Below are positions 13,148 to 14,348 of a stretch of 64,000 nt of DNA, one piece after another (positions within the stretch are counted from its first letter, which is position 1; the number at the start of each line of letters is the position of its first letter). Below the pieces are notes generated by a model that was given only the letters and a program-made list of their open reading frames with translations, did not search any database and had not been told where the DNA came from. Both the position numbers and the translations under genes were made by a program. Origin of the DNA: Eledone cirrhosa (Eukaryota); assembly GCA_964016885.1 (NCBI GenBank), contig CAXHJY010001750.1, forward strand, positions 1 to 64,000. The letters run 5' to 3'.

Positions 13148-13179
13148 TAAATATTAATCTTCAATGCATTTTTGTAACC

Positions 13180-13250
13180 GTCCATGTGGCCTAATGGTAA
13201 GTACGAGAGACGGTGGAGATCCTGATTTAGGGTTCGATTTCCGTTAGGTT
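13180..13250 (+). ncRNA. tRNA-like Pol III unit t1 (not a canonical tRNA)
   Basis: A box TGGCCTAATGG at 13187, B box GGTTCGATTTCC at 13231, central AGAGACGGTGGAGA, T-run downstream. The acceptor and anticodon stems do not pair. Confidence 0.6.
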
Positions 13251-13341
13251 CTATACTAATAGCTGCGTATTTGTGGCTTTTTATTTTATTGAATGAAAAA
13301 GTAGGTTTATATATATCAATTTTCAGTAAGTTTCCGTAACC

Positions 13342-13412
13342 GTCCCTTTAGCCTAGTGGTAAGTTTAAGAGACGGTAGAGGTCCAGGTTCGGGGTTCAAT
13401 CACTGGCAGTGT
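13342..13412 (+). ncRNA. tRNA-like Pol III unit t2
   Basis: A box TAGCCTAGTGG at 13349, B box GGTTCAATC at 13393, central AGAGACGGTAGAG, upstream AAAGTAGGTTTATA(T/A)ATA. Confidence 0.6.
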
Positions 13413-13494
13413 GTCGTATTATATGTTTTATAGTATAAAACAAAAATAAAAAAGTAACTTTATAAATATTAATTTTCACACCGTCTTTATATCT

Positions 13495-13567
13495 GTCTCC
13501 GTGGCCTAATGGTAGGTATTAGAGACGGTGGAGAACCTGCTCTGGGTTTCGATCTCAGTCAAAGTCT
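13495..13567 (+). ncRNA. tRNA-like Pol III unit t3
   Basis: A box TGGCCTAATGG at 13502, T-arm CTGGG-TTTCGAT-CTCAG, upstream TTTATAAATATTAATTTT, TTTTTT downstream. Confidence 0.6.
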
Positions 13568-13631
13568 ATAGATAATAATTTCATTTTTTACTTTGCTAGA
13601 GAAAAATTTAAATTTAAAAAGATATAGTACA

Positions 13632-13704
13632 GATTCGGACTGAGATTGAACCCCACATCAGTGTCTCCATAGTCTCTAACACCTACCATTAAGGCCAACG
13701 AAAC
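13632..13704 (-). ncRNA. tRNA-like Pol III unit t4, convergent with t3
   Basis: Reverse complement reads GTTTCGT TGGCCTTAATGG TAGGTGTTAGAGACTATGGAGACACTGATGTGG GGTTCAATCTC, with upstream GAAAGTAGGTTTATAAATATTAATTTT. The GACTATGGA segment resembles a tRNA-Arg anticodon region. Confidence 0.6.
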
Positions 13705-14348
13705 AGATACAAGAACATAAGAAAAAATTAATATTTATAAACCTACTTTCAATTTCCAAGCAAAATAGATATGCTGGCGTTCATGGCTTTCTCATTGTTA
13801 TTTCTACTATAATCGGGTCAATGTTTACATTTATTCTTCTGGGGCTTTCATAAAATATATTTTCACTTTCTTTCGGGTTCATTAGATCCTACAACCAGAT
13901 GATCTACAGGTACCTTCTTCATGGTCATAGCTGATAATTAAATATATACGGGAGAGTGTGTCTGTGTATTAGATTAGATCTTGCCGTGATGTACTCAGCA
14001 ATAATGGTTTTCAATTCCGTCGTCCCTCCATCCTTGGTGTGTATATAAATATATATGTGATTTTAACGTACAACGGCGACAATATATAAATCTGTTTTGT
14101 TTGATAATAATTAGATAAAGCTAATTCTACAACCCCTGTTAAACATTGAAACCACGACTATAAAATATAGCAACAACCACGACATAACAGTCTCTGGTTA
14201 AATATGATTTAATCAAATTATTGGTAGAGATTGATCCCTAATATTTTATCTCACTCCTTAACCAGGGAGGAAAGGTCCTCAGACTCGGACAATGTTGATA
14301 AGGAGAGCAGAGTGTATCCTTATTTGTCACGTCTTTCCAGTTGTCACG

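Follow-up and report, generated by a model that had tools for sequence, protein, structure and literature searches.

A tandem macro-repeat of Eledone cirrhosa carries cassettes of four tRNA-like, putative RNA polymerase III RNA genes

The whole stretch of DNA analysed here, 64,000 nucleotides long and hereafter called the window, contains a tandem macro-repeat with a cassette of four tRNA-like modules in each period (Table 1). Sequence inspection and pattern searches place modules t1, t2 and t3 on the forward strand, at module-to-module distances of 162 and 153 bp, and t4 on the reverse strand, in agreement with the preliminary description. Each module comprises an A/T-rich upstream 25-mer with TATAAA, an A box, the common core AGAGAC(G/T)(G/A)T(A/G)GAG, a B-box-like GGTTCRAT and a T-run; the t1 version of the 25-mer differs at about six places. 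A GCCATGAACGCCA-type motif, common to the first units of other clusters, precedes the t4 TATA element. In most other arrays, the palindrome segment and t1 are inverted, so that t1 faces away from t2. The ORF list shows no long non-repetitive ORF in the 4,538-bp unit. Because the three cassette copies are near-identical (897-902 of 902 letters), the previously given count of 12 copies in the window is correct as a number but represents four genes in three tandem copies, not 12 independent events.

Other features adjoin or share the repeat unit. A TCCA/CT-rich simple repeat, about 10.5 kb long and of pure C/T-strand type, occupies positions 1-10700 immediately next to the array, and the array on C18 (L019) has a similar C/T tract at its end. 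At 14340-14450 (+), a TATATAAAAGGCAGT motif is followed on its 3' side by a hairpin, both kept in diverged arrays (L012, C15); a Pol II promoter internal to the unit may lie here. Still within the unit, about 14550-15230 (+) resembles by eye a decayed CR1-type LINE fragment.

Table 1. Positions of the array, cassette and module features in the window.
Feature	Position	Strand	Basis
Tandem macro-repeat, non-coding, 3.5 periods x 4,538 bp, one four-gene cassette per period	10703..26486	+	repeat analysis, ORF list
Imperfect palindrome, ~230 bp, 5' of t1	12915..13147	.	sequence
t1 upstream TATA element, 25-mer variant	13137..13161	+	sequence
t1 predicted Pol III RNA, 104 nt + U, +1 G 13174	13174..13282	+	pattern search, solitary copies
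t1 internal parts	A box 13187-13197; core 13206; B box 13231-13239; T-run 13278-13282	+	
t2 upstream TATA element	13299..13323	+	pattern search
t2 predicted Pol III RNA, 90 nt + U, +1 13336	13336..13429	+	pattern search, solitary copies
t2 internal parts	A box 13349-13359; core 13368; B box 13393-13401; T-run 13426-13429	+	
t3 upstream TATA element	13452..13476	+	pattern search
t3 predicted Pol III RNA, 95 nt + U, +1 A 13489	13489..13589	+	pattern search, solitary copies
t3 internal parts	A box 13502-13512; core 13521; degenerate B box 13546-13554; T-run 13584-13589	+	
t4 predicted Pol III RNA, 90 nt + U, +1 G 13710	13616..13710	-	pattern search, solitary copies
t4 internal parts	A box ~13697-13686; core 13677; B box ~13652-13644; T-run 13620-13616	-	
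t4 upstream TATA element	13724..13748	-	pattern search
Cassette copy 2	17674..18287	.	pattern search, alignment
Cassette copy 3	22212..22825	.	pattern search, alignment
Cut-off 13th unit, older subfamily, at array end: TATA element + decayed A box	26486..26555	-	pattern search

The genome (3.0 Gb, rich in microsatellites) contains further arrays of the 4.5-kb unit on C18, C20, C22 and C26. Exact patterns for t1, t2, t3 and t4 match 180, 128, 145 and 187 places genome-wide, respectively; places are known for the first 100 matches per gene, and among the matches listed most lie within arrays. The copies of the 4.5-kb repeat number well over a hundred, and the whole unit is found at a depth near 1,000 (two runs of one sample; contigs of unrecorded kind). 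The exact upstream 25-mer occurs 497 times, compared to 0 for a reversed control, and is therefore far above chance.

Related units occur in three settings. Arrays of the window type have older subfamilies of 65-80% identity next to them. A second subfamily, whose units have two or three B boxes, forms clusters, several of them close to chromosome ends. The third setting is a non-autonomous DNA transposon, dispersed and lying in (TA)n, which has CAGTGGCGGACTGG as terminal repeats and carries a tail-to-tail pair of units as cargo. Terminal inverted repeats were found at four of the five carrier loci examined, with (TA)n flanks that mask the length of any target duplication; they are absent from the 64-kb window. 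The carrier may belong to the hAT-type superfamily, which is defined by terminal inverted repeats and an 8-bp target duplication. Copy number grows as the 4.5-kb unit is duplicated in tandem and, for other subfamilies, via the non-autonomous transposon. A giant or virus-like carrier with VA/EBER-type RNAs was considered and rejected, as the long repeats on C10 and the clusters on C1 and C9 turned out, among the output listed, to hold nothing but LINE and Helitron fragments, the Helitron on C9 being an insertion into the unit cluster. A Helenus TRIM, described in the passages of PMC10886601 drawn on here as two direct LTRs with tRNA-like sequence, PBS, PPT and a 4-bp TSD, was likewise rejected: the units here form inverted pairs or cassettes, and the dispersed carrier has terminal inverted repeats.

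The promoter geometry of the family was assessed on 56 non-redundant units, part of them chosen with loose motif filters, that remained of 63 found once 7 broken or spurious ones were removed. The TATA box lies 41 nt 5' of the A box in 35 of these units and 40-43 nt in 44, and A and B boxes are 44 nt apart in 30 of the 52 units with both boxes called, which is the spacing of tRNA genes. TATAAA is located at -28, with GTA at the start, and three U6 upstream regions of the genome are alike (AGTA/GGTA..TATAAA, same distance). A PSE common with U6 was rejected, since the upstream motifs of the family were not found at the U6 loci. The upstream 25-mer is also missing from the Thr, Ala-type and Glu tRNA genes examined in the genome. 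Relative to the B-box consensus GGTTCRAnYCY (given in part of PMC10137851), all of the t1-t4 B boxes are without C at tRNA position 61; this base is C in 19 of 54 units. From the promoter geometry, we derived the predicted start sites and RNA lengths of Table 1. The family thereby combines a type 2 promoter, a TATA-like box near -30 and a T-run terminator, as do 4.5SH, 4.5SI and snaR. The preliminary description had also raised double-stranded RNA from the convergent t3 and t4; because their T-runs finish 27 bp apart and do not overlap, this would require read-through. A pure insulator role, its other suggestion, is conceivable but not needed for explaining the data.

Traces of transcription come from solitary, promoter-less copies of all four genes on other chromosomes. 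Loci collected by body patterns alone, after removal of seven extra monomers from two tandem loci, amounted to 114 distinct loci, of which 60 retain upstream DNA at least as far as -57, the other 54 being cut short. Among the cut loci, 18 start at -3 to +3, compared to 3.7 expected under uniform breaks (p 9e-9); another 8 start upstream of this interval and 28 downstream of it. The clearest set belongs to t3, for which nine non-array copies (L261-L269, among the matches listed), with 95-100% identity to t3 over the aligned part, all lack the TATA element. Four of them (L261, L265, L266 and L269) begin at +1 after unrelated DNA, three begin inside (TA)n, one is 5'-cut and one extends past the T-run. 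Similarly, L223, related to t1, and the t4 copy L285 begin at +1, and L286, also from t4, near +5; the +1 starts of L285 and L266 were judged by eye and are outside the 18 counted. The t2 copies L273 and L276 are 5'-cut: they extend from the A box to the T-run or its vicinity. At the other end, L263, L264 and L265 stop at or in the T-run and continue into a SINE or LINE 3' end: L265 into the final 46 bases of a 3' end of LINE type that is also found at window positions 52545-52590, and L264, like L218, into a tRNA-type SINE that is abundant and has a copy at 57826-58026. The solitary set also includes DNA fragments or read-through products, with L249 and L268 extending past the T-run.

These features indicate that the solitary copies are likely retrocopies, and the genes would therefore likely have been transcribed in the germ line, from +1 to the U-run and by Pol III. 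The copies point to the RNA ends directly, and Pol III is suggested as the polymerase by the promoter. Given the 95-100% identity of its copies, t3 would have been transcribed recently despite having the weakest B box. Together with the promoter geometry, the solitary copies whose ends match the predicted +1 and the T-run support the earlier proposal of Pol III RNA genes, with RNAs of about 90-105 nt. The further proposal that copies arose by DNA duplication and not by retroposition is correct for the arrays and incorrect for the family overall, which has spread also via the DNA transposon and by retroposition. Fusions of small RNA copies to retroelement sequence by template switching are described for U6-LINE and WEIRD-LINE in the parts of PMC4476161 and PMC2104539 used here, where they mark an abundant RNA; the parallel covers the stray copies found here, not the source genes.

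Three loci hold head-to-tail multimers with monomers of RNA length: L250 (C3:300677028), with five t1 monomers of 106 nt running from +1/+2 to the T-run, L226 (C13:34452444; 93-95 nt) and L163 (C5:31856295; about 60 nt). They are likely minisatellites born from retrocopies by template jumping. The window itself contains, at 42329-46078 (-), an intact LINE ORF of 1,249 amino acids that encodes an endonuclease, a reverse transcriptase and C2H2 fingers; the element is a candidate supplier of the enzyme for retrotransposition.

Could the units simply be master genes or heads of a SINE family, from which a retroposon was copied? In favour of this, retrocopies do occur, and in L202, L209, L235 and L265 they share one LINE 3' end as fusion partner. 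Yet different heads are joined at different points, which marks the fusions as separate events and not as a replicating family. Moreover, the upstream element is kept, with at most 6 mismatches, in 67 of 74 units found by body alone, nearly always 43 nt before the tRNA-like 5' end; the 60 loci that retain upstream DNA are DNA copies, and the arrays have no tail. Dispersed copies with a common body and tail but no common 5' flank, as expected of a tRNA-derived SINE, are not what we find. We thus consider this reading very unlikely, and the earlier view that the modules are not truncated heads of a dispersed SINE stands, given the kept upstream element and the lack of a common tail. Two decayed tRNA-type SINE heads do occur in the window (56662-56620 and 56551-56480, both -); they have similar A boxes, with neither core nor TATA element.

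Conservation was measured on 22 lineage representatives with a mean body identity of 62%. Departures from the commonest base amount to 6% in the TATA element, 15% in the B box and 17% in the A box, compared to 25% in the RNA middle, 35% in the leader and 43% in the 3' part. At A/T sites alone, the TATA element departs at 5% and the leader at 32%. A comparison of the window with four diverged arrays agrees: identity is 91-93% in TATA elements, 86-96% in B boxes and 76-85% in A boxes, but 66-77% in RNA middles and 52-60% in leaders, with 82-86% in non-genic flank. Divergence thus spares the promoter boxes, as had been noted from the window, and the RNA bodies are less conserved than the flank. 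Paralogue replacement, faster mutation or diversifying selection may account for this low conservation.

The same data bear on a more modest reading, in which the units are transcribed but are passengers: a DNA transposon and macro-repeats would have captured tRNA-derived promoters, with no benefit to the host. Active promoters would persist only because transcribed copies duplicate more often or because A/T-rich elements mutate slowly. Such an account fits the transposon that carries unit pairs between CAGTGGCGGACTGG ends, the RNA bodies that diverge faster than the flank and the absence of covariation. It also fits the spread of A-box deletions in arrays, the A box being lost in 7 of 34 t4 copies fetched, and the low rate at which A/T sites change in neutral copies: among dispersed copies of the transposon, this rate is 3% in the TATA element compared to 4-6% in flanks, so that composition accounts for part, not all, of the TATA contrast. 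What it fits less well is a TATA element that is better kept than the flank, and kept together with its nearly indel-free spacing over 22 lineages, at 5% change in A/T sites against 32% in neighbours. We judge this reading unlikely, though credible; it overlaps the explanation we prefer, set out below, and differs from it solely in host benefit.

We also examined whether the RNAs are tRNAs or share a fold. A and B boxes are at tRNA spacing, but the acceptor and anticodon stems of a cloverleaf are not maintained. In 20 lineages, the anticodon stem is paired in 38 of 100 cells compared to 35.5 in shuffles, confirming the reported lack of complementarity, and the acceptor register is only weakly paired (84 of 140 compared to 79.2). 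ARAGORN finds 0 genes in the window and Rfam 0 matches at gathering score; between 12900 and 14600, Rfam gives no tRNA or vault match at E<=10. ARAGORN 'Asn' and 'SeC' calls obtained with introns allowed are artefacts spanning family units, and the miRNA matches that Rfam lists at 12939-13123 and 13514-13684 score under the gathering threshold and stem from inverted repeats. Compared to Glu, Thr, Ala, Val, Asp and Ile tRNA genes (a loci set without Arg tRNA), the family reaches at best 26-36 of 73 positions, and the tRNA-Arg derivation suggested by the preliminary description is not established; a tRNA-Glu origin was not retained, as 35-36 of 73 compared to 33-34 of 73 for Thr is not decisive.

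The commonest sequence of the family allows two hairpins, one formed by the D-arm with GAGACGGU and the other carrying the T-loop. RNAalifold gives no consensus fold across family units, and for the window RNAs, predicted folding is hardly stronger than for shuffled sequences (z -2.05, -0.20, -0.41 and 0.64). In tree-free pair counts, a conserved two-hairpin fold was rejected for want of excess pairing over shuffles in 20 lineages (hairpins 1 and 2, p 0.55 and 0.29), with 74% compared to 72% paired in 47 related rows. The D-stem alone shows excess pairing in the 20 lineages (63 of 80 compared to 58.0; p 0.005, unadjusted for six tests). The two-hairpin fold is likely ancestral and loosely held.

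These results also weigh on vault RNAs of the lineage, or another known type of RNP RNA too diverged for Rfam. Vault RNA genes, in the sections of PMC7058938 drawn on here, show limited conservation outside the A and B boxes, employ upstream elements and give rise to pseudogenes, and the family here likewise joins a type 2 promoter and upstream elements with little conserved outside the boxes. The genome encodes a major-vault-protein repeat, and the second subfamily, with its multiple B boxes, would suit such an origin. The same sections report a 5'-3' terminal stem for all species and one to four copies in each species listed, whereas here the predicted folds of t1, t2 and t4 have no terminal stem, t3 alone pairs its ends, weakly, and copies number in the hundreds. 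In addition, the family is colinear with a tRNA and gives no RF00006 match at E<=10 or E<=5. A vault identity is accordingly very unlikely.

Closer parallels in design are found among amplified Pol III RNAs, described here from portions of the cited papers. Rodent 4.5SH has 700-800 genes, each in a 4-5-kb tandem unit, and requires a TATA-like box at -31/-24 (PMC3440375, PMC10137851). Like the family here, it is a Pol III RNA of about 95 nt with A and B boxes and a TATA-like box, encoded by hundreds of genes in kilobase tandem units amplified at the DNA level, over a narrow taxonomic range. It is 7SL/B1-derived, with one gene per unit, uniform sequence and a reported role against B1 exonization (PMC3440375, PMC10137851), whereas the present family is tRNA-derived, has four diverged genes per unit on both strands and also travels as DNA-transposon cargo. 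4.5SI is tRNA-derived, about 100 nt long and similarly equipped with A and B boxes and a TATA-like box (PMC3440375, PMC10137851), but consists of three genes with stable 5'-3' end pairing, in contrast to hundreds of diverging copies with no conserved end pairing. Primate snaR likewise comprises Pol III RNAs restricted in lineage, which segmental duplication has spread into tandem arrays and which have diverged into subfamilies; it is Alu-derived, NF90-bound and of demonstrated expression (PMC3045588), while the present family is known from its sequence alone. Xenopus OAX and newt PolIII/TAN share a transcribed tRNA-like sequence in a tandem repeat with no matching SINE (PMC10702118), yet they are short single-unit repeats, unlike the 4.5-kb unit here, in which several genes with a U6-like TATA element form a cassette. 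By analogy, the family appears to work like 4.5SH/4.5SI, snaR or OAX, and it is not homologous to them by any test applied here; a comparison via Rfam families, which involved no direct alignment, gave no 4.5SH, 4.5SI or snaR family among the matches. The literature searched, which excluded Repbase, subscription journals and supplements, contains no description of the family, in line with its initial presentation as undescribed.

We therefore favour, with fair though not strong confidence, the explanation that t1-t4 are four diverged members of a lineage-specific, tRNA-derived family in a tandem macro-repeat, encoding non-tRNA germ-line Pol III RNAs of 90-105 nt in which selection acts more on the promoter than on the RNA. 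Selection on the promoter, germ-line expression and Pol III itself are what we infer from the sequence. TFIIIC would bind the A and B boxes, TFIIIB would sit on the TATA element at -28 as at U6, and the polymerase would begin at the G/A +1 and end at the first T4. Occasionally, a LINE reverse transcriptase would use the RNA as a template, yielding the retrocopies and SINE/LINE fusions whose structure is observed and whose enzyme is presumed. The role would most likely be that of a 4.5SH/snaR-type family, with either an abundant, sequence-tolerant Pol III product or transcription itself, as open Pol III chromatin in the repeat, being what matters.

A bolder reading starts from promoters that are fixed, bodies that change faster than neutral flank and RNAs captured by LINE reverse transcriptase: several hundred fast-diversifying germ-line Pol III RNA genes would serve as host decoys or antidotes against the genome's own tRNA-SINE/LINE machinery, or represent the first vault-type RNAs of the lineage. 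We hold this to be unlikely. If bodies truly outpace the flank under a fixed promoter, conflict with retroelements would be implied. In the favoured explanation, rodent 4.5SH and ape snaR would have an invertebrate counterpart here, its 4-5-kb tandem design reached independently from a tRNA. The family would also show a Pol III gene spread by three routes, namely tandem arrays, DNA transposon cargo and retroposition, with SINE-like head-tail fusions caught at birth. The RNA is directly testable, since its exact 5' and 3' ends can be read from the solitary copies.

Other Pol III genes of this genome are repeated as well. U6 genes form a tandem array with a 1.8-kb period at C19:31.78-31.84 Mb, in which some copies have SINE sequence replacing the promoter, and tRNA-Glu-type genes form one with a 1.3-kb period at C3:277.24-277.37 Mb, so that tandem amplification of Pol III genes is a general trait of this genome. 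At the centre of L095 and L097-L105 lies a dispersed repeat shaped like a tRNA, with common flanks and a variable anticodon (ggc, agc, gac, gtc or ggt); it is called as tRNA by Rfam and ARAGORN and is likely another repeat-borne tRNA-like element.
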